Positions 4,047 to 43,574 of a DNA stretch of 64,000 nucleotides are shown piece by piece (within the stretch, counting starts at the first letter, position 1; every line of letters starts with the position of its first letter). The stretch spans positions 7,317-71,316 of the forward strand of contig JBDRCT010000029.1 in NCBI GenBank assembly GCA_043821445.1, read 5' to 3'. The translations under genes were made by a program, and so were the position numbers. This stretch comes from Candidatus Omnitrophota bacterium (GTDB lineage Bacteria; Omnitrophota; Omnitrophia; Omnitrophales; Aquincolibacteriaceae). The notes below the pieces were generated by a model. It did not search any database. It saw only the letters and a list, made by a program, of their open reading frames with translations, and was not told the origin of the DNA.

Positions 4047-4053
4047 GGAACTT

Positions 4054-6369: not shown

Positions 6370-6439
6370 AGCGAACAGGAATTTAAGCCTCATTACACAA
6401 CATCCTTTTCTTTAAAATTGAAAATTTCCAAGGGTTGGT

Positions 6440-8408: not shown

Positions 8409-8411
8409 GGT

Positions 8412-9338: not shown

Positions 9339-9370
9339 ATCGGACGTTTTTATCATTTTATCTGAAGGGA

Positions 9371-9691
9371 GTGTCCATGAGTTTTGACAAAGAATTTGAG
9401 CAAAACATGAAACAACTAATGCATCTTCTAAAAAAGATCATGAGTCAATATCCAATGGAGGGGAAAAATCCTGCGGAGATGATGAAATTCTTTAAAGATA
9501 TGAAAGACAAGAGCTCGGACGTGAATATTTTTTTTCTGAACATGTCGCCGCTTTCTCCGGAAGAACTCGATGAGATCGAGGGAATGTTCGAAGAAGGTGT
9601 GATGGGCGAATATCTCAGGTCGGGAGAGCTTAAATGCGAGCTCAACGATGATGACCAGGTTTTCCTTAAGCGGCATGGCATCCGTTTTTAG
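9371..9691 (+). CDS. small acidic hypothetical protein
   Basis: 106 aa, no recognisable domain. Plausible RBS (GAAGGGAG). Confidence 0.4.
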   Translation: MSMSFDKEFEQNMKQLMHLLKKIMSQYPMEGKNPAEMMKFFKDMKDKSSDVNIFFLNMSPLSPEELDEIEGMFEEGVMGEYLRSGELKCELNDDDQVFLKRHGIRF

Positions 9692-9703
9692 GGCTATCGA
9701 CTC

Positions 9704-10525: not shown

Positions 10526-10606
10526 ATCGGTCCAGGATTTTTTAAGCACTCGTTCAAAAGTATTTAACTCCTTTCGCATCAATATGTTACGTTTTTTTTA
10601 AAAGCA

Positions 10607-10635
10607 TTGACAGTCCTAGTGAATTCTCATAAGAT
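10607..10635 (+). promoter_or_regulatory. putative sigma70 promoter (TTGACA-17-TAAGAT) upstream of rplU
   Basis: TTGACA at 10607-10612 and -10-like TAAGAT at 10630-10635. Seen in sequence. Confidence 0.4.
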
Positions 10636-10667
10636 ATGCGCTCTCTTACAGTCAAAGGAGTCATTTC

Positions 10668-21932: not shown

Positions 21933-23279
21933 GTGCTAGCCATGAAAAAAACACCATCGTTCTTTGGTATTTTTTTGATGCTTGTTTTCAACGCGTCCGT
22001 TTCTGCCCAAGTCCCGCTTGCGGGGTCGGGAGCCGTTCCGGCGCAGGCGGGTCTTGAGCAGGTCGGGGTCGTGGCCGCCGCCTTCGGCAAGGTCGAGCTT
22101 AAAACGCCCGGCCAAGTCGGCCGCGTCGCCGAAAGCGGGAAGCCAGTCTTCATGGGCGATGAAGTAAAGACCGATGCGAAGGGGCGTTTGCAGATCCTGC
22201 TTCTTGACGAGACGGTTTTTACCGTTGGACCCGATAGCGCGATCGTGATCGATGATTTTGTTTATGACCCCGCGACCGATGAGGGGAAAGTAAGGGCAAG
22301 CGTTACCAAGGGTGTTTTCCGTTATGTTTCCGGGAGGATCGCGGCCAAAAAACCCAATAATGTCGCGATCAAACTCCCTTCGGCCATGATTGGTATCCGA
22401 GGAACGATCGTCGTGGGGCAAGTGGCGGCGCTTACCTCCCTTGCGATACTTATGGGCCCAGGCGAAAATAACGACGCCAGGGCCACAGTAGGAAGTTTTG
22501 TCGTCCAGGGCGAAGGGGCTCATGCAGGGGTGGAGCGAACTGTCAACCGGACGGGCTTCGGCGTTCAGGTGGACCAGACCGGAACGCTTTCCGCCACGTA
22601 CAAAGTTCCCGATGCTGACGTGAGCCGGTTGACTTCAGTTCTGGCCCCGGCGCAAGGATCGACCGAGGACTCCGGGCTGGGCGGCGGGGATTCCGCGACC
22701 AATCTTTCGGGCGAAGGGGGGGTGATCACGGAAGAAAATTCGAATATTTCCGGAGGCGTTACTGAGATTTCCAACAGCCTCGGCGATGATTCAACAAAGG
22801 GCGCCCAAGACACGGCCTCGGGCGCCACCAGCGTCGCGGACGGTATTTCAAAAATAGTGGATCTGGCGCGCATCACGACAGGGATTTTCTATTACTCCGC
22901 CTATGGATCATATCCGGGCGTTGGAGGCTACGCATCCGGACAATTGGAAATTAATTTTGGCACAAGAACGATTGGCAGCGGAAATTCCAATCTTTACGTC
23001 ACCGACGGCACCAACTGGGACGAGACATCGAGCTTCAGCGGCGGCGCAAAGTCTTTTGACCAGGCGGTTGGCGGGGGGCCTAACGCGGTTTACGATTGGA
23101 GCGGCACACCCGGCGACAACGGCGGCACTTTTACGACACTTCAGGTTACGCTTTCCAATGTCGGCGGAGAGGTCGCCCATCATGCAACGGTAGATTATAG
23201 CTACTCACAGGGCGGTACGGGTCCGATTAGTGGTAGCGGTAGCGCCACCGGAGACCGTTATGCGGGGTCCGCCCCCTGA
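21933..23279 (+). CDS. secreted FecR-domain protein with Gly/Ser/Thr-rich C-terminal region (paralog 1)
   Basis: Signal peptide. FecR-like core GDEVKTDAKGRLQILLLDETVFTVGPDSAIVIDDF…IGIRGTIVV. Very GC-rich. Confidence 0.6.
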   Translation: MLAMKKTPSFFGIFLMLVFNASVSAQVPLAGSGAVPAQAGLEQVGVVAAAFGKVELKTPGQVGRVAESGKPVFMGDEVKTDAKGRLQILLLDETVFTVGPDSAIVIDDFVYDPATDEGKVRASVTKGVFRYVSGRIAAKKPNNVAIKLPSAMIGIRGTIVVGQVAALTSLAILMGPGENNDARATVGSFVVQGEGAHAGVERTVNRTGFGVQVDQTGTLSATYKVPDADVSRLTSVLAPAQGSTEDSGLGGGDSATNLSGEGGVITEENSNISGGVTEISNSLGDDSTKGAQDTASGATSVADGISKIVDLARITTGIFYYSAYGSYPGVGGYASGQLEINFGTRTIGSGNSNLYVTDGTNWDETSSFSGGAKSFDQAVGGGPNAVYDWSGTPGDNGGTFTTLQVTLSNVGGEVAHHATVDYSYSQGGTGPISGSGSATGDRYAGSAP

Positions 23280-23369
23280 ACGGGACATTTCCATTCTGAA
23301 ACGGAATCAAAGAAAAGGGGACAGGCAATCAATGAATGCCTGTCCCCTTTACCTTTAAGGAAAATTCTC

Positions 23370-24227
23370 ATGAAAAAAAATATTCTCTGGATTTCCGTTA
23401 CTTTGATCGTTGCACTGATCGGGGCGTGGGGTGTTCTGTCCGCGCAGCCCGCGGGGCCGGCGCAGGCGGGGGTGGCGGGCGCCGTGAGGGGAGAGGTAAA
23501 GGCGGCGCCGGAAAGCGCGGCGGAGCGGCCTCTTAAAAGCGGTGACAAGATTTTTATGGGTGACCGGATCGAAACGGGCAAGGATGGCCAGATGCAGGTC
23601 CTTTTGCTCGATGAGACCGTTTTCACGCTTGGGCCTTCGAGCGCGACGGTCGTGGATGAATTCGTTTACGATCCGGCAACCGATGACGGCAAGGTGCGGG
23701 CCAGTATGCTGAAGGGGATCTTCCGTATCGTCACCGGAAGTGTGGCGCACAAAAAACCGGAGAACATGGAGGTCGCGCTCCCGGCCGGGGTCATTGGCTT
23801 TCGTGGCACGATCGTCGGCGGCATCATTGAAGGTTTGCGGTCGATGGTCGCGCTTCTGGGCCCCGAGCAGGCGGCCGGGCAGATCTACGTGAGCAATACG
23901 GTGAATGGCAAAACGGTCGGCGTGGATATCACGCAAGGCGGATACGGCACGGTCATAGGTGGCGCCGGCATTGCGCCGGTCCCCGCGTTCCACATTCCCG
24001 AGTCAGACCTTAACCGGATTGCGAACGCGGTAGGGCAGTCCATGACTCCCGGCGCGGCGGCCGAAACGACCGGGGAAGACATGACGACGGCCTCGAAAGC
24101 GAGAACGGGCGCTGGTGCGGAGGCTGCGGGAGAGCTCTTCAAGACCACGGATAAGATGGATCAGTATTCGCAGCAGGCCGCTCAGGATAAGGGGAGCAGT
24201 TCGTCGTCAGGCCATAGTTCCAGTTAA
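23370..24227 (+). CDS. secreted FecR-domain protein (paralog 2)
   Basis: Clear paralog of the 21933 protein (…GDRIETGKDGQMQVLLLDETVFTLGPSSATVVDEFVYDPATDDGKVRASM…FRGTIVGG). Confidence 0.6.
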   Translation: MKKNILWISVTLIVALIGAWGVLSAQPAGPAQAGVAGAVRGEVKAAPESAAERPLKSGDKIFMGDRIETGKDGQMQVLLLDETVFTLGPSSATVVDEFVYDPATDDGKVRASMLKGIFRIVTGSVAHKKPENMEVALPAGVIGFRGTIVGGIIEGLRSMVALLGPEQAAGQIYVSNTVNGKTVGVDITQGGYGTVIGGAGIAPVPAFHIPESDLNRIANAVGQSMTPGAAAETTGEDMTTASKARTGAGAEAAGELFKTTDKMDQYSQQAAQDKGSSSSSGHSSS

Positions 24228-26037
24228 AAAGCAGAAATAAAGGCGCCCCTTTATTTTGGAGGTCGCGATGGTGACACCGTCCCAGGATGGGCCCGGCGGA
24301 TCGGCGCGGCAGGATTGAACGCGGGATGCGTAGAGATCGTAAAGTGGCCCCAGTTCAATGTCCGGCAACTTGATCTTCCTGCAGTTTTCAAGCGATTTTT
24401 CGACTTCTTCCCAACGTCCGCTCCGGTAAGAGGCGAGCATCCGTTCTTGTTCCGTTTTGAGTTCCCGGAAGACCGCGCGGTCGTTTAAATCCTTATCTCC
24501 CAAAAGTGCGAAGATATTGACCGGGGTCTTCTTTCCCTTCACACGGATCAGGTCCACTTCCAGGGCCGCATTTCCGGCACTCCTGCCATTGTATTGGCCC
24601 CCAGGATGGTGGTCGTGCCATAATTTTTTGAGGCGCCTTCCAGCCGCGAGGCGAAATTGACGTCATCGCCCAGGACCGTGTAATCGAACCGATGCTCGGA
24701 CCCCATGTTGCCGACGCAAGCCTCGCCGGTATTGATGCCGACACCGCTCTTGATCTCCAGGAACGGTTTGCCTCGCTCCTCAGCCTCCCGCTTCCGGAGT
24801 GCGTTCCACTCCCGCAGGAACTGCTGCATCTCGATTGCCGCGAGACACGCGTGTTTTGCATGGTCCTTGTCCCCGAGCGGAGCGTTCCAGAACGCCATGA
24901 TGCAGTCCCCGATGTGTTTATCGATCGTGCCGCCGTGCTTCAGGATGATATCGGTCATGGGCGTCATGTAATGGTTCATGAATTTTGTGAGTTCCTGGGC
25001 GGTCATGGTCTCGGAAAGGCTCGTGAAACTCCGGATATCCGAAAAAAGAAAGGTCATGGTCCTGGTCTCGCCGCCGAGCTTGAGCTGTTTCGGATCCTTG
25101 ACCGGTTTTGCCACCAAGGCCGGGGAAAGATAACGGCTGAAGGCGCCGCGGATCTGGCTTTTCTCGCACTCGGTACGCAAAAAATTCAGGAATGAGGACA
25201 CAAGATAGATGAGGAAGATCACAAGCGATGGGAACACGGGGTCCGTGAGCAGATGGTGCCGATCAAAGGCGTACCACGAAAGTCCCATGGCGAGCGTCAC
25301 GGCCGTGATGCCGACCGCTGCGCAGAGAACGGCGCCCGCCCGCGGCAAAAGCAGGATCAAAATGAGCCCCAGCAGGACCAGGTAACTGAATTCGGCGCCT
25401 TCGGCCCAGTCCGGCCGTTCGAGGAAGTTTTGAAGAAGGATCTGTTCGGCGATCCCCGCATGGATCTTCACCCCCGGAGCGCGCGGATTGAGCGGCGTTG
25501 AACGGAGATCTTTAAGGCCTGCCGCGCTTGTCCCGATAAAAAGCAGGGTCCCTTCCAGACTCGCAAGGTCAAAATCGTCCGAGAGAACCTTCCAGGCCGG
25601 GAGGTAACGTTCGGGCTGATCGCCCGTATCATAAAGCCAGACCCTGCCGTGTTTGTCCGTGGGAATCGTGAGTTTGCCGATGCGGACCTTCACGATGCCC
25701 GTCCTTTCTCCGAAGGCCCGTTCGCCGCTGCCGCCGCTGAGCTTGATCTTGTAGAGGGTCGCCCCTTGTGCGACCCGCAGGGCTTCCGCTGCCAGGGAAG
25801 GATAAATGGTTTCCCGCAGGTTGAAAAAGAGGGGGAGACGGCGGATGACGTTATCCCGGTCATCCGGCATCGCGATGCTTCCGTTGCCGGCCGCGGCTTT
25901 CTCCAAAACGGGCAGATCGACAACAGCGCCCTCATAAGAAGGGCGAAGGTGGTCGATGGCCTTATCGCCCGCGATGCCGCCGTTCCCGTTCGAAGCCGCG
26001 ATTGCCGTTTCTCGATCAGTCCCGAAGACGGAGCTTG
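24207..26037 (-). pseudogene. CHASE2-domain class III adenylate/guanylate cyclase, 5'-truncated and frameshifted near the 3' end
   Basis: The 452-aa ORF (24548-25906) carries the distal part of CHASE2, TM helices and the cyclase core (FLFSDIRSFTS…GDCIMAFWNAP). The cyclase C-terminus (DLIRVKGKKTPVNIFALLG) continues in another frame in the ORF at 24207-24557. The frame is open upstream to 26037 with no start codon and no N-terminal TM or CHASE2 N-half. Confidence 0.65.
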
Positions 26038-26140: not shown

Positions 26141-27432
26141 TGTCCGCTTTCCGTAGCACGTGATTTGTCCGCTTTTGGTTTTTGGTTATTTTGAGCTCCT
26201 GGGTTTCTTCGGGTTTGAATTTGGCAATTATGTGCGGTCCGTAGGTGACGGTGATTGATTCATCGAGATGCTCATGGATCGTAACTTTGCATTTAGCAAA
26301 GGAGATTCTGAATTTCGAAGGTTGAATCTAAAGGATCCTGTTGTTCCAGTGTACGGTGTTGTCGCATCCGACGGAACGTTGCTCTTTGATTGAGAAGACG
26401 AGGTCAAGGTTCTTGCCCCGGTGAGGGGTAAAGGCCGTTCCTTTTTGTTCCGGGGGTTTTACGAAAGATGCCCGGTACTGTGGCAGAAAGGTCTCAAGGA
26501 TGTAGCGGTTGGCATCGGGAATGGTCTTGATGCCGTAGAGTTTGAGTTCATTGGGCAAACGACCCTGTCATGTTCCGAAGATCCTTTCGGATCGGCCCCG
26601 TGCTTGAGGGGAATAGGCAGGAATGGGCTCGATGCCGAGCTCGTAGAGAGCTTGTCCGATCTGAGTGAGATTAGAGAGATCGACTTTGGGGCTAGACGGC
26701 AGGGTTCGGAAGAAGTGACTGGCGCGATCCGAATAAAGGAGGCAAAAGACCCCCTTGGACCGGACCACATGGCGTAGAGCGAGCATGCATTCCCTGGAGT
26801 TTTCCTGGGGAACGAGCTTGGCGTAATAGATGTCACCGGTGGCATCATCAGCGACCACGATGAGATCTTGGTGGCCTGGAAGGTTCGGGATCCATGAATG
26901 CGTGGAACCGTCGATATGGAGCATCATTCCCGGGATGGGTTTTCTGGGCCGGCGTTGGTGGTGTTTTGATTTTTTGGAGCGGACCTCGACGTACCCAGCG
27001 CCTTGGAGCAGGTTTTTAACCCAGGTGTATTTATAACCGATGCCGTGCTTGGCGAGTTGTTCATAAAAGTGCCATGTGTTCCAATCTTTGTATTGGTCGC
27101 GGTAGAGCTGAAGAACGCGGCTTCTGACGGGTTCTGGCGCCCTTTTAGGGCTCGGACGCCTGCTTCTGCGGTCGAGAATGCTTTCGTAGCCGCCCAGTTC
27201 GACGGATTCTTTCCAGCGGCGAATGGTGCGTTCGTCAACTTTCAAGATTTCAGCAACCTCTCTCCAGGTTAAGGATTTGTGATAGGCCCTGGTGAAGACA
27301 TCTTGTATTTTCATGATCCGCTCCCATTGAGCCGGGGGATAGAGCATAATCAGCCTCCTGTTCTGAGCTTGAAAAGCTGATTATACGGTCCGGCATAAAA
27401 GCGGACATTTCACGTGCTACGGAAAGCAGACA
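26141..27432 (-). mobile_element. IS element (~1.29 kb) with 36-bp imperfect terminal inverted repeats; ISNCY/IS481-like DDE transposase
   Basis: IRL at 26141-26176 (TGTCCGCTTTCCGTAGCACGTGATTTGTCCGCTTTT) against the reverse complement of IRR at 27397-27432: 33 of 36 positions match. One transposase gene lies between them. Confidence 0.7.
26328..27347 (-). pseudogene. DDE transposase (HTH + rve-like core, HIDGSTHSW motif) interrupted by an in-frame TGA at 26568-26570
   Basis: The ORFs 26568-27347 and 26328-26558 are in the same frame, separated only by the TGA. The joined product reads …RGRSERIFGT*QGRLPNELKLYGIK…, like uninterrupted ISNCY-type transposases (…ER.FGTLQDRL.KELRL.GI…). Confidence 0.65.
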
Positions 27433-27539: not shown

Positions 27540-28076
27540 ATGGCCAATAATAAAAAGAAGGAAGATATCCAGGAGAAGATTCTTGACGTTGACGCGAGCA
27601 TGCAGGGCACGATTTCGTTCAAGGATCCCGTGAATTTGCGCATCAACGGAAGTTTTGAGGGCAAGCTTGACACGCGCGGCAATCTCACGATCGGCGAGAA
27701 CGCCAAGGTCAGCGCGAATATTCACGGCGACAATATCGTCATAGCCGGAAAAGTTTCCGGAGATGTCATGGCGACTCAAAGCATTTCCATTCTTGGAACG
27801 GCAACTCTCAAAGGGAACCTTACCACGCCACGCTTGAGCATCGGAGACGGCGCAATCCTTCAAGGACTTGTGAATATGCAAGGCCTGAGCGTTTCAGATG
27901 GATCGGATGTTTTTTTGACTTTAAAGGATGTGGCGCAGTATTTGGAGGTGGAGGCTCGCATTATTGAAGAGTGGGCACATTCCAAAAAGATCCCGGCCCG
28001 TTTTGATAATGGTCACTGGATCTTTACCAAGACCGAGGTGGATCAATGGGTCCAGCGGGAGAGGGCTTCGGTCTAA
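27540..28076 (+). CDS. bactofilin (DUF583) domain fused to a C-terminal excisionase/MerR-type helix-turn-helix DNA-binding domain
   Basis: Residues ~30-125 have a bactofilin beta-helix repeat pattern (NLTIGENAKVSANIHGDNIVIAGKVSGDV…LKGNLTTPRLSIGDGAILQG). The C-terminus LTLKDVAQYLEVEARIIEEWAHSKKIPARFDNGHWIFTKTEVDQWV matches the HTH_17/excisionase signature. Confidence 0.7.
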   Translation: MANNKKKEDIQEKILDVDASMQGTISFKDPVNLRINGSFEGKLDTRGNLTIGENAKVSANIHGDNIVIAGKVSGDVMATQSISILGTATLKGNLTTPRLSIGDGAILQGLVNMQGLSVSDGSDVFLTLKDVAQYLEVEARIIEEWAHSKKIPARFDNGHWIFTKTEVDQWVQRERASV

Positions 28077-30425: not shown

Positions 30426-30542
30426 GCTTCGGAACCCTTTTCTTGTAAATCCGCAGTATCTTAAGTAGAATACCGCCTCTTGCGTTTTCGGAACCTGAGA
30501 GCAGATAGGACAATCGGAAAGAAATCTTTGTTCCTTGTATCA

Positions 30543-30555
30543 TGGGCCGGTAGTT
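30543..30555 (+). repeat. 13-nt exact duplicate of the tRNA-Ala 5' end (TGGGCCGGTAGTT), also at 30651-30663
   Basis: Seen in sequence. Chance expectation within 115 bp is about 1e-6. Confidence 0.5.
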
Positions 30556-30651
30556 TCCATCTCGCTTATAGCGAGGACGGATCCGTCCTTCGGCAACGCC
30601 GGAGGCGGACAGTTGGGTTGGATAATAGCTAAGCTCATAGGTGCTTATCGT

Positions 30652-30727
<76 letters not shown>

Positions 30728-30819: not shown

Positions 30820-30862
30820 TTTTGCGGGGATGGCGGAACTGGCAGACGCACTGGACTCAAAA
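30820..30862 (+). repeat. 43-nt direct repeat = 5' half of tRNA-Leu(CAA) (through the anticodon loop) plus 4 upstream nt; identical to 40800-40842 (putative attL)
   Basis: TTTTGCGGGGATGGCGGAACTGGCAGACGCACTGGACTCAAAA is present at both sites. The copy here diverges after the anticodon loop. Confidence 0.75.
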
Positions 30863-30880
30863 AGCGTCTGCCTTTTTTTT
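30841..30880 (+). terminator. rho-independent terminator built from the tRNA-Leu fragment
   Basis: 9-bp stem GGCAGACGC/GCGTCTGCC with a 14-nt loop, followed by T8. Confidence 0.6.
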
Positions 30881-30990
30881 GCGAACCTCTTGTGTTTCCT
30901 TCATTTACATCATTTCTTCTCTACAAAATATCTTTTTTGATTTGTTCTGTGCTGACCTCTCTTGACCTCACATAAGGCTTATTCAGCGCT

Positions 30991-31016
30991 AAAATAGACA
31001 CAAAATGGTCACAAGG
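30991..31016 (+). repeat. 26-nt direct repeat AAAATAGACACAAAATGGTCACAAGG, second copy at 40704-40729
   Basis: Exact copy, seen in sequence. Nested inside the 43-nt repeat pair. Confidence 0.7.
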
Positions 31017-31585
31017 GGTTCATGTTGGATTTCGGTTATAAAGCCAACGGGCGAAGCAAACGCAGAAGCGGGTACTTAAATTCAAGGATTTCCATCTTTT
31101 ACCAGTTTTATGCGGGTGCATTGTTTTTGATAAAATGAGCTGCACTCCGGACATTTTTCGGACGCCAGCTTTTTATTTTTTATCCTTCAAAAACTAAACT
31201 CCCACCCTCGTTTCATTCTTATCATTTTTAGTATCATTCTGATTAGCCCCACCATGAAAGGTCATAAACCGCGAGCTTCAATATCGAGTAAAAACCACCT
31301 ATTTAAATATCGGTTTCTTGTAAATCGCGACGTTTGCCCAGGGGAATACGCTCGATAGCGTGTTACCTTCTTGGAGCAACAGTGGACAAAAAATAAGAAG
31401 ATTTCAAAAAAGGTCTGTGGAGTTCTTTCAAGAGAAACAGCGGTGATGGCGATTTTTTCTTCAATCTTGGGAAACGGAGCGGGATTCAAGGTTTTTGGCG
31501 TATAATATAGTTCGTGAGAGGGGTCATTGTTCTGAAGACTTTGTCTTCCGAAGGTCCCATTAAACCAAAAGAATAGGAGCGCGCG

Positions 31586-34500
31586 TTGAGTCTAAAGTTT
31601 TTTAAGGACTTCATTCTGGCTGTCAAAATGCGTCTCGGTGCTTTTTGGGCCCGGAAGAAGATCGCCGAGGAACAGCCTCTTCGTGCCGAGCTTTTCAGTA
31701 TTGATCAGTTTAAGGCGCATGCGAAAGGCCTGGCCCAAAGACATCGTGTCAGTTACAAAAAGGGGCAGAACCGGCTCTTGCTTCGGTTGAGAAAAAATGA
31801 ACAGGTGCTTTCGGAGATCCACGAATTACTTAACGAGACGGGAAAACCCAAACGAAGGATCGCGCCGGCCGGAGAATGGCTTCTCGATAATTATTATCTC
31901 ATTGAAGAACAAATAAGGCTCGCCCAGAAATACCTCCCGGGAAAGTACATCCGCGAACTTCCCCATCTTCTTCGAGGACCGCTTGCCGGTTATCCGCGTG
32001 TTTATGAGCTTGCCATGGAGCTTGTCTCCCACGGCGACGGACGGCTGGATAGCCAGGGGCTTGCGGAGTTTGTCACGGCATATCAAACCGTCAGCCACTT
32101 GAAACTCGGCGAACTGTGGGCCATCCCCATTATGTTAAGGCTGGCGCTTATCGAAAACTTGAGGCGCGTATCCTCCCGGTTGATTGTGGCACAAATGGAA
32201 AGAGATAAAGCGGATCATTGGGCGACGCGGATCCTGGGAGTTTCGGCCAAAGATACCGATGGGGTGATCTTTGAAATCGCAGCGATGGCCAAAGGGAACC
32301 TGCCGCTTTCCGACGCTTTTGTCGCGGAATTCACACGGCGTTTGCATGGTCAAAGCCAAGCGCTCACTCTTCCTTTTGCTTGGTTGGAAAAGAAACTTGC
32401 GGAGCAAGGAGAGACCCTCGACAGAATCATCCGGGCAACCAGCCAAAAACAGGCGGCCGATCAGGTCTCGATCGCGAACACGATTGGGAGTCTGCGTCTT
32501 CTGGAAGTTACCAATTGGCATGATTTTGTCGAAGCCTTGAGCGTTGTCGAAAAGGTTTTGAGCCAGGATCCATCGGGAGATTACAGCCGGATGTCTTTCG
32601 AGACCCGCGATCGCTATCGGCATGTCGTGGAGAAGCTTTCTTTGAGAAGCAAGACCGGCGAAGAGAAGATCGCGGCGCGCGCGATCCAGATCGCAAAGAG
32701 GGCCGAAGGGGAGAAAGGTCCTGGCCACGTCACGACGCATGTAGGTTTTTATCTTCTCGATAAAGGATTGGAGCTTTTTTGTGGCGAACTGGGCTTTCGC
32801 TTACCTCTCCGGCAGTATCTTCAGGCGAAAAAAAATTTTTGGCCGGCTGTCCTGTATTTTTCTTCCATTACTGTGATGACCCTTACCTTGACCGCAGGTA
32901 TTTTGTTTTGGATGAAGCCAGGGGGGAGCTCGAATTGGCCGTGGTTTCTTTTATTCGGGATGCTCCTTCTGTTCGCGATAAGCCAGACGGCGGTGTCACT
33001 TGTCAACTGGTTTTCCGCGATGCTCGTGAGCCCCCAAGACCTTCCCCGGATGGATTTTTCAGAAGGAATTCCCGCTTACGCCCATACGCTGGTCGTGATC
33101 CCTTGCATGCTCAGTAACGCGCGCATGGTTACCGCACTTTTCGAAGGGCTAGAGGTCCACTATCTTGCGAATATCGACGCGAATACGGATTTTGCCCTCT
33201 TAACGGATTTTTGCGATGCCCCGCAGGAGACGATGCCTGAGGATGCGGCCTTGTTGGAGCAAGTTACGGACGGGATTGAGCAGCTGAATCACAAATATCG
33301 ACGGCGGAAAGATCACGTTTTCTATCTTCTTCACAGGCCGCGCCGGTGGAATGAAAAAGAAAAGGTGTGGATGGGGTATGAACGCAAGCGGGGCAAACTG
33401 GCGGATCTTAATGCGTTCCTTCGCGGAAAAGGGGAAGGCCGGTTTAGCGTGATTCTCGGGGACCCGCAGAGGCTTCAGACCGTGAAATATGTCATCACGC
33501 TGGATACGGACACCCGGATGCCACGGAACGCGGCGCGGGAGCTTGTCGGGGTCATCGCGCATCCGTTGAACAAGGCGGTCTATGATGAAAAAAAACAGCG
33601 GGTCATCTCCGGATACGGGATCCTCCAGCCCCGGGTCGAATCCAGTTATCCTGGAGAAAATCCTTCTTTGTTCGTGAGAGTCTTTGGAGGCGATTCCGGG
33701 ATCGATCCTTACACCAAAGCGGTGTCCGATATTTACCAGGATCTTTTCTTCGAAGGGTCTTTTATCGGTAAAGGGCTTTATGACGTCGATGCGTTCGAAA
33801 GATCCATGGAAGGCCGTTTCCCGGAAAATCTTATCTTAAGTCATGATCTTTGGAGGGCTGTTACGCCCGCTCAGGGCTTGTGACGAATGTTCAATTCTAC
33901 GAGGAATATCCCTCGGGTTATCTTAAAGACTCAAACAGGAGATACCGTTGGATCCGCGGGGATTGGCAAATCGTTCCCTGGTTGTTCGCTTCGGTCCGCG
34001 GGTCCAGCGGCGCAAAGGCCCGAAATCCGGTTTCTTTTCTGTCTCAATGGAAGATCGTGGATAACTTAAGACGGAGTCTTGTTCCTTTTGCGACGGTTTT
34101 GCTGCTTGTGTCAGGCTGGATGTTTTTTCAGCCATCCTGGATGTGGTCGGTCTTTGTGATCGTTCTTCTTGGTTTTCCCCTCGTGCCGATATCTCTGACG
34201 GAGGCGGTGAGGAAACCCGGGGATCTGACCTTCAAGACCCATTTTGGGCTGGTGTTGTCTTCATTCAAGAAGAACGTGGTCCGGTTCTTCTTCTCGATCG
34301 CTTTTTTGCTGCACGAGGCGTTCTATTCTTTGGATGCGATCGTGCGAACTTTGTGGAGAATGTTCGTGTCGCGGAGGCATTTGCTGGAATGGCGGCCCTC
34401 CCGGGATTCGGAAGTGTCTCTGCGAAAAAATATTTTAGATTGCTACAGGAACATATTCCTGGAACCCATTGCCGCGGGGCTATTGCTGGTTTGCCCTTCG

Positions 34501-37500
34501 GGTGTGTTCCCGACTTTCGACGGGTTGGCGCTGATCCTTTTAAGCCTGTGGTTCCTTTCTCCTCTTGTGGCGTATGGGATCAGCCGACCCTCTTCTCCCC
34601 GCAAGATCCTGCTGTCCAAAACGCAGGTCCTGTTTCTCAGAAATCTTGCCAGGAGAACTTGGGCGTTCTTCGAGAACTTTGTGACCGAGAAGGAACATTG
34701 GCTACCTCCGGACAACTTCCAGGAAGAGCCCGTGAGGGTCGTAGCCCACAGGACCTCTCCGACGAATATCGGCCTGTTGCTGCTGGCGAATTTGACGGCC
34801 TATGATTTTGGTTATGTTTCGATGGGAATGATGTTCCACAGGACCGAAAAAACATTCGATACCCTAAACTTAATGGAAAAATTCAGGGGGCATTTTTATA
34901 ATTGGTACGATACGGAATCGCTCAGGCCGCTCCTGCCTCTTTATGTCTCTTCAGTCGACAGCGGGAACCTGGCCGGTCATCTCATGGTGCTTCGCTCGGG
35001 GCTCGCGGAAATGAACGCGCAAAAGGTCGTCTCTCCTAAAGCATTTAACGGCCTTACGGACACGTTGAATATCCTGCATCAAAGTATCACGGAGCTTGAG
35101 AAAAGCCAAAAAAACGCCGTCTCCGAACCTCTTCGGGGAGTTTTCGAAAGGATCAAGCAATTCCAGGAAAAGACCAAGACTTCACCCGCATGCCTTTCGG
35201 AGATCCATACGCTTTTACGCCAACTTTCAACAGATATTTCAAAGGTCCTTTCGGTCCTGGACCAGAAATATTATGAAAAAGTCAAAAAATGGGCCCGTGC
35301 CTTCGAGAGGCAATGTTACGATTTTCTGGAAGATATGTCTTTTATCGCTCCCTGGATCCTGCTTGCCCCGGAAACGCCCGGGATGTGGGACGGAGGAGAT
35401 GAGGCGCAAAATAAGCGGCTGGCCCGGCTCCGTGAGGCCTTGCAGTATTTGGATGAGATCCCTACTCTCGGGGAAGTGGCAAGGCTTGAGCAAAAACTGG
35501 TTCCGCTTATCGAGGAGATCGCTCGGGCCCTGGTCCTTACGGACGAGGAGTCCCGTAGGACCTACGACTGGTTCATGAAACTCCGTGACGCGATCAAGGA
35601 AGCCGGGACACGGTCCGCAGAGCGGATCAAGGCGATCGACTATATCGTTTTGCGATGTAATGAAGTCTCCGGCATCGAATATGAGTTCTTGTACGACAAG
35701 GACTCTCACCTCCTTTCCATCGGATACAATGTCAGTGAGCACAAGGTGGATCGCGGTTGTTATGACCTTTTGGCGTCCGAGGCCAGGCTCTGCAGTTTTG
35801 TCGCGATCGCCCAAGGAAGAATGCCTCAGGATCATTGGTTCAAGCTTGGCCGGATGATCTCAAAGTCCGAAGGAGATCATGTCCTGGTCTCCTGGGGCGG
35901 ATCGATGTTTGAATATCTCATGCCTCTCTTGGTGATGCCGACCTATGAAGGGAGTCTGCTGGACCGGACCTACAAGGCCGTGGTCAGCGGTCAGATCCGG
36001 TATGCGGCCAAGAACAATATTCCCTGGGGGATATCAGAGTCCGGCTACAATAAGATCGACGCGAACAGGGTCTACCAGTATCATTCGTTCGGAGTTCCGG
36101 ACATGGGGTTCAAGCGCGGCCTCGCGGAGGATCTGGTCGTGGCTCCGTATGCCTCGATGCTAGCCCTGATGGTAGAACCGGAAAAGGCCTGCGAGAATCT
36201 CGGGCGCTTATCCGCGGAAGGAGCCGGAGGAATCTATGGTTTCTACGAAGCAGTGGATTACACGCCGGCGCGTCTTACCCCGGATGAAACCCGGGCGGTC
36301 GTGAAATCCTACATGGCCCATCATCAAGGTATGAGTTTGTTGTCCCTGGCTTATGTGTTACTGGATCGTCCGATGCAAAGACGCTTTCTCGCGGAACCGA
36401 TGTTCAAATCAACGGAACTTCTTCTCCAGGAACGGGTCCCCACCGCCGAATCTTTTCTCTACGATTTTGAAGTGACTGGTATGCTCCGGAAATTTGGAGA
36501 ACGGGAAACGCTTTTGCGGGTGTTCACGACCCCTCACACACCGGTGCCTGAAGTCCATCCTCTCTCGAATGGCCGGTATCATGTGATGGTCACCAATGCC
36601 GGAGGAGGCTACAGCCGTTGGAAAAATCTTGCAGTGACGCGATGGGTCGAGGACTCGGCGCTCGACAACGACGGAACCTTCATCTACATCCGGGATGTGG
36701 AGTCCGGCCAGTTCTGGTCCTCGGCGTATCAGCCGACGCAAAAAAAACCAAGAAACTATGAGGCCTTGTTTTCCCAGGCTTGGGTGGAATTCAAACGGAG
36801 GGACCACCAGATCGATACGCATACCGAGATCGCGGTCTCTCCGGAAGATGACATTGAACTGCGTCGCGTGACGATCACCAATCGGTCTCGGAACAGACGT
36901 ATCATCGAAGTGACTAGCTATGCGGAAGTCGTCTTGAACGATCCCGCAAGTGATCAGGCCCATCGGGCGTTCAGCAACCTGTTCGTTCAGACCGAAATTA
37001 TCCGGTCTCACCAAGCGATCCTTTGCCGGCGGCGGCCGCGGTTCGACAAGGAAATATTCCCTTGGATGTTGCATCTGATGGCGGTCCATGGGGATGCGGT
37101 CGTTGGTGCCTCTTACGAGACGGATCGGAACAAATTTATCGGACGAGGCCATACCGTGGCTGATCCCGCAGCGATGGAGGGGCGCGGCCATCTCTCAGAT
37201 AGTGAAGGTTCTGTGCTCGACCCGATCGTTTCGATACGGAGCCGGATCGAGCTGGCGCCCGACGAATCAGCCGTGATCGATTATGTGATGGGAATGTGTG
37301 AGAATCGCGAAGCTGCTCAGGCCTTGATGGAAAAATATAGGGACCGGAATCTGGCCGACCGTGTTTTTAACCTGGCCTGGACCCACGGGCAGGTTGCTTT
37401 GCAGCAGATTAATGCTACGGAGGCTGCCGCCCAGTTGTACGGCCGTCTGGTCAGTGCCATTCTGTATGCCAATCCCGCGTGGAGAGCGAGCGCGAGTATC

Positions 37501-40374
37501 TTGCGGCGAAATAACCGGGGGCAGCCGGATCTTTGGGGATACGGTATTTCGGGTGATCTTCCGATCGTGCTTGTATGCATCGAAAATCAGGACAATATCG
37601 ATCTTATCGTGCAGATGATCCAGGCTCATGCCTATTGGCGCATGAAGGGGCTGGCGGTCGATCTGGTCATATGGAACGAAGATACTTCCGTTTACCGCGA
37701 TAGTCTTGGGGAACGGATCAGCGGGTTGATCGCTGCGAATGCCGAGGAAAGAGCGGGCCAGAGAGGCGGTATTTTCTTAAGGCGCGTCGATCAGATGTCA
37801 GATGAGGACCGGATCCTTATGCAAACGGTTGCGCGGATCATTATTTCGGATCGCGGAGGTACGCTAGCTGAGCAGCTGGAGGATATGACGCAGCCCAAAG
37901 CGAACTTGCTCCCTTTTGTTCCGACCCGGAAAGAGGATCAAGAGGAAGAGGATCGAGGCCCCGCGGAGCGCTCCGATCTGGCTTATTTTAACGGCGTAGG
38001 AGGATTTACCTTGGACGGGCGGGAATACGTGATCACGACCTCACGATCGAGGCCTACTCCCGCTCCGTGGGTCAATGTGCTGGCGAACCGGCATTTCGGT
38101 ACGGTGGTTTCGGAAAGTGGAAGTGCTTACACCTGGAGCGAGAATGCACATGAATTTCGTCTTACACCTTGGAAGAATGATCCCGTTTCGGATGCTTCCG
38201 GAGAGGCGCTTTACATCCGCGATGACGAAAGCGGGAGATTTTGGTCTCCAACCCCGTTTCCCGCGATGGGGAAGACCCGTTACACTTCGCGCCATGGATT
38301 CGGCTATAGCATTTTTGAACACACTGAAAACGGGATCGTTTCGGAATTAACGGTGTTCGTTTCCCTGGAGGAGCGCGTTAAATTCTCAAGTTTGAAGATC
38401 AAGAATATTTCCGGGCGCCGGCGGCGTCTTTCCGTGACGGCGTATTATGAGCTGGTCATGGGAACCATCCGGGATAAATATCACACGCATATCGTGACCG
38501 AGATCGATCCTAAAAGCGGTGCTCTGCTTGCGCGGAATCCCTATAACAAAGCATTTCCGGACCGGGCTGTTTTTTTAGATGTCAGTGAACCGGTGCGTTT
38601 CGTCACCGGGGACCGGATCGAATTTATCGGAAGGAACGGGATGATGCAAGCGCCTTCCGTGATGCGAAGGGACAGGCTTTCCGGCAAAGTGGGCGCGAGG
38701 ATCGACCCTTGTGTTGCCACGCAGGTTAAATTCGATCTTGAGGGAGACCAGGAAAAAGAGATCCTTTTCACTTTCGGCTCCGGGAAAACGGTAGATGAAG
38801 CGCGGGACCTCGTCCGGCGTTTTAGCGGCAGTGAGGCAGCGCGTCAGGAACTTGAAAGAGTGTGGGAATACTGGAAACGGACTCTAGGGGTCGTGTATGT
38901 GGAAACGCCCGATGTCTCGATCGATTTTCTCGTGAACGGATGGTTGCAATATCAAATCATCAGCTGCCGTCTCATGGGGCGAAGCGGTTTTTATCAATCC
39001 GGCGGGGCCTTCGGCTTCCGGGACCAGCTTCAGGACGTGATGGCGCTCGTCCATTCGAAACCGGAAATGGTCCGGGAGCAATTGCTCTTCTTTGCTGCGC
39101 ACCAGTTTGTGGAAGGAGATGTGCAGCACTGGTGGCATCCGCCCTCCGGCCGCGGGGTTCGGAGCCAGTGTTCGGATGATTATCTGTGGCTTCCGTTCGT
39201 GACGTGTCTCTATGTCGAAAAGATCGGGGACACAGGGATCCTTGATGAAACGATCGGGTTCCTGGAAGGGCCGCCGGTCAAGCCGGAAGAAGAATCTTAC
39301 TACGATATGCCGAGAGCCTCCGCCTTGGCTGGGACCCTTTACGAACATTGTGTTTTGAGTGTTAAAAGAGGGTTGAAGTTCGGCGCTCACGGCCTTCCTC
39401 TCATGGGAAGCGGGGACTGGAATGACGGGATGAATCTGGTCGGGCGCGAAGGAAAAGGCGAAAGCGTCTGGCTCGCTTTTTTTCTTTTCGATGTTCTTAA
39501 ATCGATGGCGGTTCTGGCAGCCCAGCGCGGGGATACGGCCTTTTCGGAGTTCTGTGTTGCAGAGTCCGGAAAGCTTGCTAGGAATATTGAAGAGCATGCG
39601 TGGGACGGCGAGTGGTATCGCCGGGCTTATTTCGACAATGGAGATCTTCTGGGTTCTTCCCAGAATAGCGAATGCCGGATCGATTCGATCTCACAGTCCT
39701 GGGCGGTCCTTTCAGGCGCGGCCGAGCGGGACAGGGCCCGAAGGGCCATGGATCAGGTGGACCGGCAGTTGGTCGACAGGAAACACGCGCTCGTCAAATT
39801 ATTCGACCCGCCTTTTAATAAAGCTTTTCCCAACCCGGGATACATCAAAGGCTATGTCCCCGGCGTGCGGGAGAACGGCGGACAGTACACGCACGCTGCC
39901 GTCTGGGTGGCGATCGCGTTCGCGGTCTTAGGGGATAAAAAACGGGCTTGGGAGTTACTTAATATGATCAACCCGGTGCATCATTCCGATACTGCCGATA
40001 AGTGCGCCGTTTACAAAGCGGAACCGTTCGTGATGGCCGGAGATGTCTATGCCGCTCCGGGTTTTTCCGGACGCGGGGGATGGACTTGGTACACAGGATC
40101 CGCGTCCTGGATGTATCAACTTATCGTGAAGTATTTGATGGGGCTCCGGCTGAAAGTGGACAGGCTTTATTTCGAGCCGTGTCTTCCCGCGGATTGGTCT
40201 TCTTGGAAGTTGCATTACCGATATCGGGAGACCTTCTATCACATCACATTTCTTCGGGCGGGATCTTTGGACCACGTGATTTCCGTGACCGTGGACGGCG
40301 TCGAGCAGGAAGAGAGAACCCTCCTGCTTGTTGATGACCGGATTGAGCACTCAGCCGAGGTGAAAATCGGATAA
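31586..40374 (+). pseudogene. cyclic beta-1,2-glucan synthase (Cgs/NdvB/ChvB-like, GT84 + GH94 domains, ~2930 aa) split by a -1 frameshift at ~33848-33850
   Basis: ORF1 (765 aa) ends …NLILSHDLWRAVTPAQGL*. ORF2 begins (TTG) LEGCYARSGLVTNVQFYEEYPSGY…RWIRGDWQI. Intact homologs read …SHDLLEGCYARSGLV…, so one T is missing from a T-run (CTTTGG where CTTTTGG is expected). The N-terminus (…GYPRVYELAMELVSH…GELWAIPIMLRLALIENLRR) is typical of Cgs. Confidence 0.8.
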
Positions 40375-40422
40375 TCTTGGGCCGAGTCTTCACCTAAGCC
40401 CTCTTTAAATCTGATTCTGTTA

Positions 40423-40641
40423 TTGAAAAAAGGGCCGGATTCACCTAATATCTTCACCTCGTCTCATCGGGAAGCGTTTGATGCTGTGTTAACGCGGGCG
40501 GAGATTAAGGATGCCTCGTTACATTCATTGTGCCACACCTTCGCTTCTCATTTGGTAATGAGAGGCGTTGACCTTGTGACCGTTTCGAAACTGCTGGGGC
40601 ATGTGTCGATCCAAATGACCATGTGCTCTACAGCCATTTAG
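40423..40641 (+). pseudogene. tyrosine recombinase/phage integrase C-terminal fragment (remnant)
   Basis: …LHSLCHTFASHLVMRGVDLVTVSKLLGHVSIQMTM… corresponds to the integrase catalytic box II region (HxLRHTFA…LLGH.S…T). The N-terminal ~250 aa are absent and the catalytic Tyr context has degenerated (MCSTAI instead of RYAHL). Confidence 0.6.
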
Positions 40642-40703
40642 GTCCCGAGCATCAGGCGAGAGCTGTAGATGTTTTGGATGGTTTTTGGGGGCCTACGAGT
40701 CAA

Positions 40704-40729
40704 AAAATAGACACAAAATGGTCACAAGG
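40704..40729 (+). repeat. second copy of the 26-nt direct repeat
   Basis: Identical to 30991-31016. Confidence 0.7.
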
Positions 40730-40803
40730 CCGGATTTTTACGGATGTAGTCGTTGCATTTGAATGCTATTTAAGTCGTTATAGTTGAAGTAGTTATAGCT
40801 TTT

Positions 40804-40887
40804 GCGGGGATGGCGGAACTGGCAGACGCACTGGACTCAAAATCCAGCGGTAGCAATACCATGAGAGTTCGACTCTCTCTCTCCGCA
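40804..40887 (+). tRNA. tRNA-Leu (anticodon CAA), type II with long variable arm, no encoded CCA
   Basis: Acceptor stem GCGGGGA/TCTCCGC, anticodon loop CUCAAAA, variable arm CGGTAGCAATACCATG, T-loop AGTTCGACTCT. Confidence 0.85.
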
Positions 40888-40916
40888 TGATTTTACTTCT
40901 AGGAGATAGCCCGTTC

Positions 40917-43574
40917 ATGGCCAGCGGCTTTAAAGCATATCCTTTCGACGAGATCGAAAAAAAATGGCAGACCTACTGGGCTGACCACAAGACCTTCCGC
41001 GCTCCTGATCCCGGCGAAACCGGCAGCGACAAACTTAAGTATTACGTCCTCGATATGTTTCCTTATCCTTCCGGTTCGGGTCTCCATGTCGGTCATCTCG
41101 AAGGTTATACTGCGACCGATATTGTCAGCCGTTATAAACGCATGCGTGGGTTCAATGTTTTGCATCCCATGGGCTGGGACGCATTCGGACTTCCAGGCGA
41201 GCAATACGCCATCGAAACCGGTACACATCCTCGCGAAACCACCCAAAAGAATATCCAAACCTTCAAGCGCCAGATCCAGCAGGTCGGTTTCAGCTACGAC
41301 TGGGATCGTGAGGTCGATACGACGGATCCCCATTATTTCCGCTGGACCCAGTGGATCTTCATGAAGCTCTTTGAAAAAGGCCTCGCCTACGAATCTGAGA
41401 TCCCGGTGTGGTGGTGCGATGGCTGCAAGACCGTTCTCGCGAACGAGGAAGTGGATGCCAACGGTACCTGTGAACGTAAAGGTCACAAGGATGTCTACCG
41501 CCGCCCGCTTCGCCAGTGGATCCTCAAAATTACCGCCTATGCCGAACGTCTTTTGAAAGATCTGGATCTTTTGGATTGGTCCGAATCCATCAAGGAAATG
41601 CAGCGTAATTGGATCGGGAAATCCGTTGGCGCAGAAGTCGATTTCAGATTGGAAAAAAGTTCCGACGTCATTCGTGTTTTCACCACACGGCCGGACACCC
41701 TGTTCGGAGCGACGTATATGATTTTAGCGCCGGAACACCCCCTGGTGGCAAAGATTACGACTCCGGCCCAAACGAAGGCCGTGCAAGCTTATGTGGCCAC
41801 CGCGACGCACAAATCCGATCTTGATCGCACCGATCTTGCCAAAGAAAAGACCGGCGTTTTTACGGGCGCTTATGCGATCAATCCCGTGAATGATAAGAAG
41901 ATCCCGGTCTGGATTGCGGATTATGTGCTTATGGGGTATGGAACCGGTGCGATCATGGCTGTTCCTGCGCATGACACTCGTGATTTTGAATTTGCGAAAC
42001 AATTCGGATTGGATATAAAAACAGTTATCATTCCAGATGAAGCGTGGGCAATAGAACACGGAAAGAGCATTTCATTAACTGAAAATCTGGAAAATCTTAA
42101 GGACAAATATCGCGATGCGATTCTATCAAGAAGTGTAGTTGCCCCCGAAATAGCTCGGTTAATAGAGAATGGCTCATGGGATATGCAGCAAGCAGGTCCG
42201 GCATTGCGAGGGGCTTATATTCGTTGGCCAGAAAAATTTGATACTGCTTTTACTGGTGTTGGGTTTTGCATAAATTCTAAGACGCCGAATCAAACATTTT
42301 CGATCGATGGAATGTCTAGCGATGCGGCGATTGAAAAAATCACCGCATGGTTAGAAGAGAAAAAAATAGGGAAAAAAACAGTCCAATATAAATTGCGCGA
42401 CTGGCTCTTTAGCCGCCAGCGCTACTGGGGTGAGCCGATCCCGGTTGTTCATTGTGCAAAATGCGGTCCGGTCCTTATTCCTGAAACTGAACTGCCGCTC
42501 AGACTTCCGGAAATGAAGGATTATACGCCGACAGAGAATGCGGAACCGCCGCTTGCCAAGGCCAAGGATTGGCTCCATTGCAAGTGTCCGAAATGTGGCG
42601 GCGCAGCCACGCGCGAAACGAATACCATGCCCCAATGGGCGGGCTCGTGCTGGTATTATCTTCGTTATCTCGATCCCAAAAACACGAAGGCCCCGGTCGA
42701 TCCCCCAAAAGAGAAATACTGGATGAATGTGGATCTTTACGTCGGAGGCGCGGAACATGCGGTGCTTCATCTGCTTTATTCAAGGTTCTGGCATAAGATA
42801 CTTTATGACCTTGGGATCGTCTCCACGCCCGAGCCATTCCAGAGGCTTACGAACCAGGGTATGATCCTCGGCGAAGATAGCCAGAAAATGTCCAAATCGC
42901 GGGGCAACGTGGTCAATCCCGATGAGATGATCGCGCAATACGGCGCCGACAGTCTCCGGCTTTACGAAATGTTCATGGGACCTTTGGAAATGACAAAGCC
43001 GTGGGCGAATTCCGGCGTGGAAGGTGTCTACAGATTTCTCGGGAAAGTGTGGAGGCTTTTTATCGATAAGGACGACAGACTGCACGCCAGTATCGCCCAA
43101 CGTGTCCCCAGTGCCGTCGAATTGAAGACACTCCACAAGACGATCAAAAAAGTGACGGAAGATCTGGAAGGGTTACGTTTTAACACGGCGATCTCGGCTT
43201 TGATGATCTTCATGAACGAAATTGCACAGGAACGAGATCACACGAGGGAAGTGCTGGAGAAATTCTTGCTCCTTTTGGCACCTTTTGCGCCTCATGTGGC
43301 AGAAGAACTATGGCAACGTTTGGGTCACAACCAGACGCTTGCTTATGAAAAATGGCCCGAGTATGATGAAAGGTATCTTGTCGAGGAAGAAACAGAACGG
43401 GCGATCCTGATTGGCGGTAAAGTTCGAGATAAAATAGTCGTTCCTCGTAACCAAGACGAGGAAACTATTAAAAAACAAGTATTAGAATTACCGAAAATCC
43501 GAGCGCTTACGAATAACGGTAAAAATGTTAAAAGGATTATCATTAAAGCCAACACTATAAACTTAGTTGAGTAA
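40917..43574 (+). CDS. leuS: leucyl-tRNA synthetase
   Basis: AGGAGA RBS then ATG 40917. HMGH-type class I motif (…[16 protein letters not shown]…) and KMSKS (QKMSKSRGN). 885 aa. Confidence 0.9.

Follow-up and report, generated by a model that had tools for sequence, protein, structure and literature searches.

A decayed genomic island at tRNA-Leu(CAA) in an Omnitrophota genome and the family of integrases from which it very probably derives

Genomic islands lodged in tRNA genes are defined in the Islander compilation (Hudson, Lau & Williams 2015, PMC4383910) by an intact tRNA gene and a cognate end fragment in direct orientation, with a tyrosine integrase between the repeats; the fragment stems from the 3' end of the gene in 3,760 islands and from the 5' end in 159 of the 3,919, and the anticodon is the centre of about half of all sites. 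Entry at a gene's 5' end is also known for the dusA-specific integrases (Farrugia et al. 2015, PMC4482086), whose elements are reported to supply a replacement 5' end to a target that is protein-coding and is served by a different integrase family. Islands that keep apparently intact attachment sites and lack a working recombination module are described as cis-mobilizable elements (CIMEs; Guedon et al. 2017, PMC5704250; ICEberg 2.0, PMC6323972). Here, we analyze an island at positions 30820-40842 of a 64-kb stretch of contig JBDRCT010000029.1 from a Candidatus Omnitrophota bacterium (assembly GCA_043821445.1; the whole stretch is called the window), which had been described in an earlier reading of the DNA letters by themselves (the sequence-only reading) and which carries a giant gene for a Cgs/NdvB-type cyclic beta-1,2-glucan synthase (cgs). 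The region is very probably a degraded integrative island in tRNA-Leu(CAA), made by a family of lambda-type tyrosine integrases, with a nested repeat pair that probably provides arm-type sites. It is real, old, apparently immobile and fairly ordinary as genomic islands go, and the family that replaces tRNA 5' halves is common in Omnitrophota.

The island is bounded by two nested pairs of identical direct repeats, in the order R1-R2...R2-R1 (Table 1; loci from related genomes and contigs carry L numbers, their proteins P numbers). R1 (43 nt) consists of TTTT and positions 1-39 of the tRNA-Leu gene, its last base being the end of the anticodon loop (CTCAAAA), while R2 (26 nt) lies inside it, starting 128 nt after the end of R1-left and ending 70 nt before the start of R1-right. 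With up to three mismatches allowed, each repeat gave two matches in the 64 kb against none expected from 100 shuffles, and the exactness, positions and orientation previously given for both pairs were all borne out. The insert measures 9,980 bp and separates tRNA-Ala(GGC) from tRNA-Leu(CAA)-leuS. The DNA 5' of R1-left resembles the native upstream DNA of tRNA-Leu in the empty-site genomes L004 and L005, whereas the DNA 5' of R1-right is integrase; it follows that R1-left holds the native chromosomal 5' half, now displaced, and R1-right the one brought by the element. The predicted empty site exists: in five related Omnitrophota genomes (L004, L005, L008, L009 and L058) the locus reads tRNA-Ala(GGC), 25-360 nt, tRNA-Leu(CAA), leuS without interruption, and once 30863-40842 is taken out of the window, the resulting virtual empty site runs collinear with both L005 and L004. 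The window tRNA-Leu(CAA) is identical to that of L004. By its LeuS the window belongs to Candidatus Omnitrophota, and the closest LeuS match is that of the metagenome-assembled genome (MAG) fen_1321, locus L079 (82% identity in the best segment, 86% over the whole alignment).

These features match the Islander signature, with a full tRNA gene and its cognate fragment in direct orientation on one replicon, the 5' fragment upstream of the gene on the same strand, a crossover of the anticodon-centred class and an uninterrupted site in five relatives. As Islander defines islands by this signature (PMC4383910), the window island is a member of a known minority class. It departs from that class in its Omnitrophota host and in belonging to a whole integrase clade with 5' geometry, and also in its integrase, of which it holds only a frameshifted C-terminal remnant of ~127 codons, so that the Islander integrase filter might reject it; intact genes stand at the same site in L095, L097 and L099.

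The remnant was aligned to a full-length relative (P0019, 379 aa), residues 254-358 of which correspond to window 40411-40727. The 253 N-terminal residues, Arg I included, are missing; the HxxR motif reads HSLC, with the Arg changed to Cys; and a 2-nt insertion just before the catalytic Tyr codon puts the Tyr out of frame, such that the set expected of an active tyrosine recombinase (R..K..HxxR..H..Y in one frame) is not present. The sequence-only reading had recognized the remnant and the loss of the Tyr context, at a length of 72 codons that must be extended to the ~127 given above. Because the gene has lost its first ~253 codons and a catalytic Arg and has gained a frameshift, the island would be unable to move by itself. 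Full-length integrase genes (int) with 85-87% DNA identity to the remnant are found in three metagenome contigs (L095, L097 and L099), directly before the same tRNA-Leu and leuS, and a partial, apparently intact int occupies the same site in a MAG (L011). Together with the empty sites, these genes uphold the earlier proposal of an integrase-made island with a duplicated tRNA 5' half.

The relatives further reveal a rule. In every lineage with downstream DNA to inspect (9 of 9), int is followed on its own strand by a tRNA gene, and its stop codon falls somewhere from 10 nt of overlap with that gene to 24 nt short of its 5' end, the targets being tRNA-Leu(CAA) (L011, L084, L090, L095/L097), tRNA-Met (L088, L104) and tRNA-Thr (L102, L103). 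The family integrases are 43-85% identical to the L011 protein, and an excisionase-like gene of the HTH_17 type (xis) usually stands just upstream of int. Because the arrangement of int reading into a tRNA 5' end holds family-wide, the integrases of this clade normally act by replacing the 5' half; the duplicated 5' half, once singled out as an oddity of the island, is real and is the rule of its clade as well as of a known minority class. Cargos elsewhere in the family comprise a 3,425-codon open reading frame (ORF) with ParE (L097), SIR2/SLFN-type genes (L084), RhuM/SLFN/ATPase genes (L090), PIN and nSTAND genes (L102) and glycosyltransferase/efflux genes (L087). The L097 element (365-10642) is a live family member, the giant ORF of which has no confident Pfam domain and sits beside the ParE toxin gene and an intact integrase.

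The structure predicted for P0019 (mean predicted local distance difference test score, pLDDT, 81.6) comprises an N-terminal three-strand sheet with a helix (strand-strand-strand-helix, residues 19-64, pLDDT 81-91), a core-binding domain and a catalytic domain, and it aligns with full-length lambda Int (1z1b) over ~350 columns; the nearest solved sequences are those of P2 Int (5c6k, E 8e-26) and HP1 Int (1aih). The family thus appears, from the model, to share with the heterobivalent integrases of lambda, P2 and HP1 an arm-binding-like N-domain in addition to the core-binding and catalytic domains, and the candidate arm sites that such a domain would bind appear as paired GACAC-N6-G(A/T)CAC motifs at three loci, namely the window, L102 and L079, the last with its left copy intact. 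The geometry differs: lambda, P2 and HP1 carry the 3' part of their target, with int pointing away from or lying beside its 3' end, whereas the Omnitrophota family carries the 5' half, with int reading into the tRNA 5' end. As in the window island, the target of HP1 is a tRNA-Leu gene, in its anticodon region. Two other origins were considered and rejected. For a phage, no phage genes, structural ones included, were seen in any cargo, R2 had no match in IMG/VR and viral relatives of the integrase were at most 42% identical, none of them close; for an integron cassette array, the integron-integrase models scored below XerC/D and far under their cut-offs (42.5 vs 265 bits), and the repeats derive from half a tRNA gene rather than from attC.

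The nested repeat is best read as two arm-type sites for the integrase, one in the P arm and one in the P' arm. The motif GACAC-N6-G(A/T)CAC has two matches in the 64-kb window, against 0.24 expected, and these are the two R2 copies; it also recurs in the C-terminal coding end of int in nine family members. The integrase tail encoded there is predicted to be disordered (pLDDT below 50), so that conservation of the motif is more easily explained at the DNA level. An independent 8.2-kb island with an intact integrase (L102, GCA_018830005.1) exhibits the same double-repeat geometry: its edges are a 39-nt exact repeat, made of one upstream base and positions 1-38 of tRNA-Thr(UGU) and closing with the anticodon loop. 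Inside these edges is a second repeat of 21 nt, ATGGACACTATTTGG(A/T)CACCA, of which one copy lies 120 nt after the left edge repeat and the other, within the 3' coding end of int, precedes the right edge repeat by 73 nt. Window R2 has the form of this nested repeat (ATAGACACAAAATGGTCACAA) and a similar spacing, which lends independent support to the earlier guess that R2 is an arm site, the sites remaining candidates.

Beyond R1-left, the first ~190 nt past the crossover (the P' arm) are shared by four loci (the window, L079, L100 and L101), and the DNA further on differs in each lineage. A near-invariant block of ~90 nt surrounds R2-left, and the start of the arm (AGCG, a T run and AACCTCTTG) is also recognizable in the tRNA-Thr island L102. 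Across the junction, tRNA sequence and the first island bases form a hairpin followed by the T run (ΔG −21.8 kcal/mol, z −2.4 in the window); the T run is kept in L079, L100 and L101 with a weaker stem (z −0.4), and L102 has the T run and no good stem. A terminator role for this hairpin is plausible but weakly supported. No case emerged for a structured RNA in the P' arm, where RNAalifold found compensation in 1 of 52 pairs, and Rfam gave no match in the left end. At the other end, the candidate −10 box of the rebuilt tRNA gene has TATAAT as its counterpart in L079, L095 and L097.

A mechanism can be proposed that accounts for this layout. The integrase would be of the lambda type, with an arm-binding domain, and in its attP the int stop codon would be followed at once by a copy of positions −4 to +39 of the target tRNA gene, its 5' half. 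Two arm-type sites (GACAC-N6-GTCAC) would flank this core, one 70 nt ahead of it in the 3' coding part of int and the other 128 nt past it in the P' arm. Recombination probably took place in or beside the anticodon loop, where the identity block ends. The native 5' half would thereby have been pushed, with its upstream DNA, ~10 kb upstream to become attL, and the element 5' half joined to the chromosomal 3' half to give attR and a working tRNA gene at 40804-40888. Because its 5' half is element-derived, the rebuilt tRNA must be transcribed from element DNA, either from a promoter in the int 3' end or by read-through, and the element ends may act as promoter and terminator. Decay would have followed, in which the integrase lost ~253 codons, a catalytic Arg and its frame. 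The present cargo is cgs, frameshifted as sequenced and one of several cargos found within the same ends.

Table 1. Positions of the island, its parts and its chromosomal neighbors in the window.
Feature	Position	Strand	Basis
tRNA-Ala(GGC), chromosomal left neighbor	30652-30727	+	ARAGORN; Rfam tRNA 67.7 bits; directly before tRNA-Leu in empty-site genomes
attL core / R1-left, displaced native 5' half with native upstream context	30820..30862	+	exact repeat; identical in L079
Hairpin GGCAGACGC/GCGTCTGCC + T8, candidate terminator	30841..30880	+	5' arm = tRNA sequence, 3' arm = first island bases
P' arm: AGCG, T run, AACCTCTTG, then nearly invariant ~90-nt block	30863..31052	+	kept in window, L079, L100, L101
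R2-left, candidate arm-type site (GACAC-N6-GTCAC) in P' arm	30991..31016	+	exact repeat; same position as nested repeat of L102
Rest of conserved left end, common only to L079	31053..31312	+	95% identical to L079 1350-1608; homology ends at 31312
Window-specific cargo: cgs + 273 nt upstream + 34 nt downstream	31313..40408	+	no homology to L079 or other fetched loci
cgs ORF1, 765 codons, cytoplasmic/transmembrane + glycosyltransferase part	31586..33883	+	8rf0, 8rf9 residues 58-741, E 1e-129
cgs −1 frameshift, codon 754	33849..33852	+	CTTTGG; conserved frame needs CTTTTGG
cgs ORF2, 2,174 codons: transmembrane, glucoamylase-like/cyclization, GH94 phosphorylase	33850..40374	+	8rf0/8rf9 residues 1264-2818, 1,504 bits
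Tyrosine-integrase remnant, C-terminal: residue 254 to end of ~376-379-aa protein	40409..40790	+	homology to full-length relatives
R2-right, candidate arm-type site in P arm, within int 3' coding end (encodes KIDTKWSQG)	40704..40729	+	exact repeat
Candidate −10 box TATAGT for rebuilt tRNA-Leu, element-supplied	40779..40784	+	tentatively read from the sequence
attR core / R1-right, element-derived 5' half, now part of working tRNA-Leu	40800..40842	+	exact repeat
tRNA-Leu(CAA), chimeric: element 5' half + chromosomal 3' half	40803-40888 (gene position 1 = 40804)	+	ARAGORN
leuS, chromosomal right neighbor	40917..43574	+	Pfam; 82-86% aa identity to Omnitrophota LeuS

To judge from sequence comparison, the cargo gene resembles Agrobacterium Cgs (NdvB/ChvB; 8rf0, 8rf9) collinearly over ~2,900 aa, with its glycosyltransferase, glucoamylase-like/cyclization and GH94 parts (Pfam GH94_b-supersand, Glyco_hydro_94 and Glycoamylase in ORF2); it differs in its Omnitrophota host and in a reading frame broken at codon 754. 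Addition of one T at the break restores a single ORF of 2,929 codons, reading ..SHDLLEGCYARSGL.., and all 150 of the 150 best relatives stop aligning to ORF1 at query residues 753-764, where the frame breaks. The multi-domain architecture of the Cgs/NdvB type (~2,800-2,900 aa, collinear) is thus present in an interrupted frame: the identity assigned to the gene by the sequence-only reading holds, whereas the intact gene of ~2930 aa is not found in the DNA as sequenced. As the break sits inside the glycosyltransferase domain, cgs would be inactive if the sequence is right; the break may also reflect a single sequencing error in a homopolymer. Nine other overlapping ORFs checked in the window are separate genes, and the assembly is therefore not generally error-prone. 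Programmed frameshifting or transcriptional slippage was rejected on inspection, there being no X XXY YYZ heptamer and a run of only 3-4 T.

The nearest homologues of cgs (62-70% identical) come from Goldiibacteriota, Endomicrobiales and Omnitrophota MAGs and more distant ones from Victivallales, Phycisphaerae and Methanospirillum, a patchy spread that, as far as sequence relationships go, fits horizontal transfer. The GC content of cgs is 0.534 and its GC at third codon positions (GC3) 0.575-0.587, compared with 0.511 ± 0.031 and 0.578 ± 0.059 for the 33 other genes in the window; the island had been called GC-richer than its flanks, which is numerically true and not meaningful, cgs lying within the range of the window. 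A stronger compositional outlier than the island is seen at 21933-25906, where three genes, including one for a CHASE2-adenylate/guanylate cyclase, have a GC content of 0.575-0.61 and GC3 up to 0.74 (window means 0.51 and 0.58); an ORF resembling a transposase and holding only the helix-turn-helix (HTH) part adjoins them at 26568-27347.

The age and history of the island are illuminated by its sister locus, L079. This locus has the same 43-nt pair (at 1117-1159 and 9884-9926), a left end 95.8% identical over window 30863-31312 (450 nt) and the same truncated integrase, with homology from window 40409 at 80.5% identity and many indels; leuS is 88% and the flanking intergenic DNA 89-91% identical. 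As repeats, left end and truncated integrase are all shared, integration and truncation predate the split of the two lineages. Where the window has cgs, L079 has a six-gene operon for a group-4 (Hyf/Ech-like) NiFe-hydrogenase, and a search of each locus for traces of the other's cargo found none in either. The microhomology TTTAAAT near both cargo junctions is too short and too imprecisely placed to count. The model implicit in the sequence-only reading, that the event that made the repeats also delivered cgs, stands in part: the island is integrase-made, but the same shell in L079 holds a hydrogenase operon instead, and cgs was not necessarily delivered by that event.

Two alternatives bear on the repeats themselves. 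R2-left could be what remains of another integrase 3' end from an earlier tandem element, and no binding site at all; R2 is indeed coding on the right side, and a weak protein similarity appears ~5-10 codons upstream of R2-left (to P0006, 13 aa at 77%, E 0.04). However, R2-left lies downstream of its 5' half, the wrong side for an int end, it is exact in L079 although the integrase remnant there has decayed, and the unrelated tRNA-Thr island L102, with its intact int, has the same layout at the same spacing, all of which makes such a remnant improbable. That the repeats arose by segmental duplication or another rearrangement without site-specific recombination is scarcely credible, given an integrase remnant that abuts the tRNA, live family elements at the same site, empty sites in relatives and two independent islands whose identity blocks both stop precisely at the anticodon loop; nothing specific speaks for such a rearrangement. 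Several observations nevertheless weigh against the proposal of a degraded integrative island with arm-type sites. The island has no working integrase and there is no direct sign that the window copy ever excises. A search of the 10-13 kb preceding the intact int in L084, L090, L097 and L103 yielded no attL, so that complete two-ended islands are documented only for the window and L079, which share one event, and for L102. No R2-like copy was found in the P' arm of the tRNA-Leu(UAA) sub-family (L098, L002), and conservation of the 21-nt R2 core in L100 and L101 reflects ascertainment, these loci having been retrieved with that pattern. The junction hairpin is clearly above shuffled stability only in the window, its stem being mismatched in L079 and L100. 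No donor of cgs can be named, as its nearest relatives are only 62-70% identical, and the gene bears no foreign compositional signature, its GC and GC3 falling within one standard deviation of the window genes.

Differential loss, replacement, and accretion with deletion each fit the difference in cargo between the window and L079. The simplest history has cgs as the original cargo and the hydrogenase operon replacing it later in L079. The way in which cgs nearly fills the space between the two conserved ends speaks for it, as does the giant single-gene cargo of the live relative L097; yet L079 shares the left end and the truncated integrase without a trace of cgs, the window is likewise free of hydrogenase remains, the direction of replacement cannot be read and cgs occurs in no other locus with this shell, which leaves this history possible and short of probable. 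An ancestral island holding both the hydrogenase operon and cgs (at least 17 kb of cargo), from which each lineage deleted one, would dispense with coincident breakpoints, the ends of homology being simply the ends of deletions, and would account for an inherited integrase remnant with the 80.5% identity and many indels expected of a pseudogene. We found no locus with both gene sets and no remnant of the other cargo in either genome, and this course of events, too, is one that we would entertain without favoring. Alternatively, a second related element may have entered the same tRNA gene to form a tandem array, in which deletions then fused parts and placed new cargo within old ends. Repeated integration at the tRNA-Leu site is indicated by the tandem traces in L100, with two successive displaced 5' fragments, and L101, where an integrase scrap is succeeded by a 5' half and then a P' arm, and in L002 a toxin-antitoxin cassette is enclosed by a duplication of 158 nt that comprises the int 3' end and the 5' fragment; the window itself has just one displaced 5' half and one integrase remnant, and accretion is rather doubtful.

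Between the window and L079, the displaced 5' half (43/43) and the left end (95.8%) outlast leuS (88%) and the integrase remnant (80.5%) in conservation, which suggests selection or gene conversion. On this basis, the ends of the island could form a maintained docking shell, either as attachment sites for related integrases acting in trans or as a terminator and promoter essential to the expression of tRNA-Ala and tRNA-Leu, an idea that we put forward tentatively and consider doubtful. In the first case, if it were true, cgs, the hydrogenase operon and genes for giant proteins would be exchanged at a fixed tRNA-Leu hotspot in Omnitrophota; and, taken with the rule of int reading into the tRNA 5' end, there would be phylum-specific elements that replace the tRNA 5' half and bring their own tRNA promoter.

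In its present state the island resembles a CIME (PMC5704250, PMC6323972), R1 and R2 being exact on both sides and the integrase dead. Tandem accretion with related elements is seen in relatives of the window island, and no conjugation or mobilization genes were seen within it. As an example of DNA gained horizontally at a tRNA gene the island is routine; its phylum is uncultured and little studied. The family is more useful, as its attP layout can be read: an int 3' end with an arm site, the tRNA 5' half, AGCG and a T run, and a second arm site. With predictable targets (the 5' halves of tRNA-Leu, tRNA-Thr and tRNA-Met), this layout could delimit islands in Omnitrophota MAGs, whose contigs often end at just these sites, and could supply new pairs of integrases and attachment sites for engineering. 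The hotspot beside leuS trades metabolic and envelope traits, namely the cyclic-glucan synthase, the energy-converting hydrogenase, defense genes and a giant protein.

Further arrangements around tRNA genes were noted in the relatives. Two tandem tRNA-Leu(CAA) genes occur in L001 (590-817), L094 (12037-12273) and L058 (9640-9978); the upstream copy is decayed, with a shared 11-nt deletion in the T arm, and lies beside an integrase remnant in L001 and L094, and the downstream copy is intact with a different acceptor stem. Two unrelated contigs, L058 (9660-9760) and L100 (reverse strand, ~68-150), each have a tRNA-Leu gene fragment that is interrupted in its D-loop part by the same insertion of ~100 nt (TCCCAATT...GACAAGGG). 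L098 (11300-11800, reverse strand) and L002 show an integrase, then the 5' half only of tRNA-Leu(UAA), then DNA that is not tRNA, which is an attP-like or tandem junction; the two copies of the L002 duplication (1652-1809 and 2589-2746) bracket a PhdYeFM/PIN toxin-antitoxin pair. Six contigs (L001, L094, L011, L007, L087 and L092) end within or just 5' of an integrase or tRNA-Leu, and this recurrence suggests that strain-level variation or repeats at the tRNA-Leu hotspot break assemblies.

Small elements of ~150-250 nt stand directly after tRNA-Ala or tRNA-Leu genes in L008 (9645-9835), L009 (955-1212) and L084 (11233-11395). They are edged by a 16-20-nt repeat of the tRNA 3' end, match no Rfam family and share a core of ~90 nt, GAAGGGAGCACTTG...GTGCGGGTGGCCGAC..AGCGAATA.AATGAGCGGAG.GCGCC; they could be a miniature tRNA-targeting mobile element or the scar of another integrase family. 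In the window, a 108-nt insertion (30538-30645) lies just 5' of tRNA-Ala; it is absent from L079 and has no Rfam match. An 18-nt repeat, TATCRTGGGCCGGTAGTT, made of six upstream bases and the first 12 bases of tRNA-Ala, forms its edges, and it holds a perfect palindrome, GAGGACGGATCCGTCCT, that is also present between the decayed and intact tRNA-Leu genes of L001 (671-687).

The window LeuS is 885 aa long, compared with 819 aa in relatives, and its residues ~372-470 (window ~42030-42330) are a lineage-specific segment of ~100 aa after the editing domain, in place of ~35 aa. Upstream of the island, at 27540-28076, the window encodes a fusion of bactofilin and HTH_17, and the same fusion is found in the relative L090, beside genes for GreA, ACPS and YdjC.

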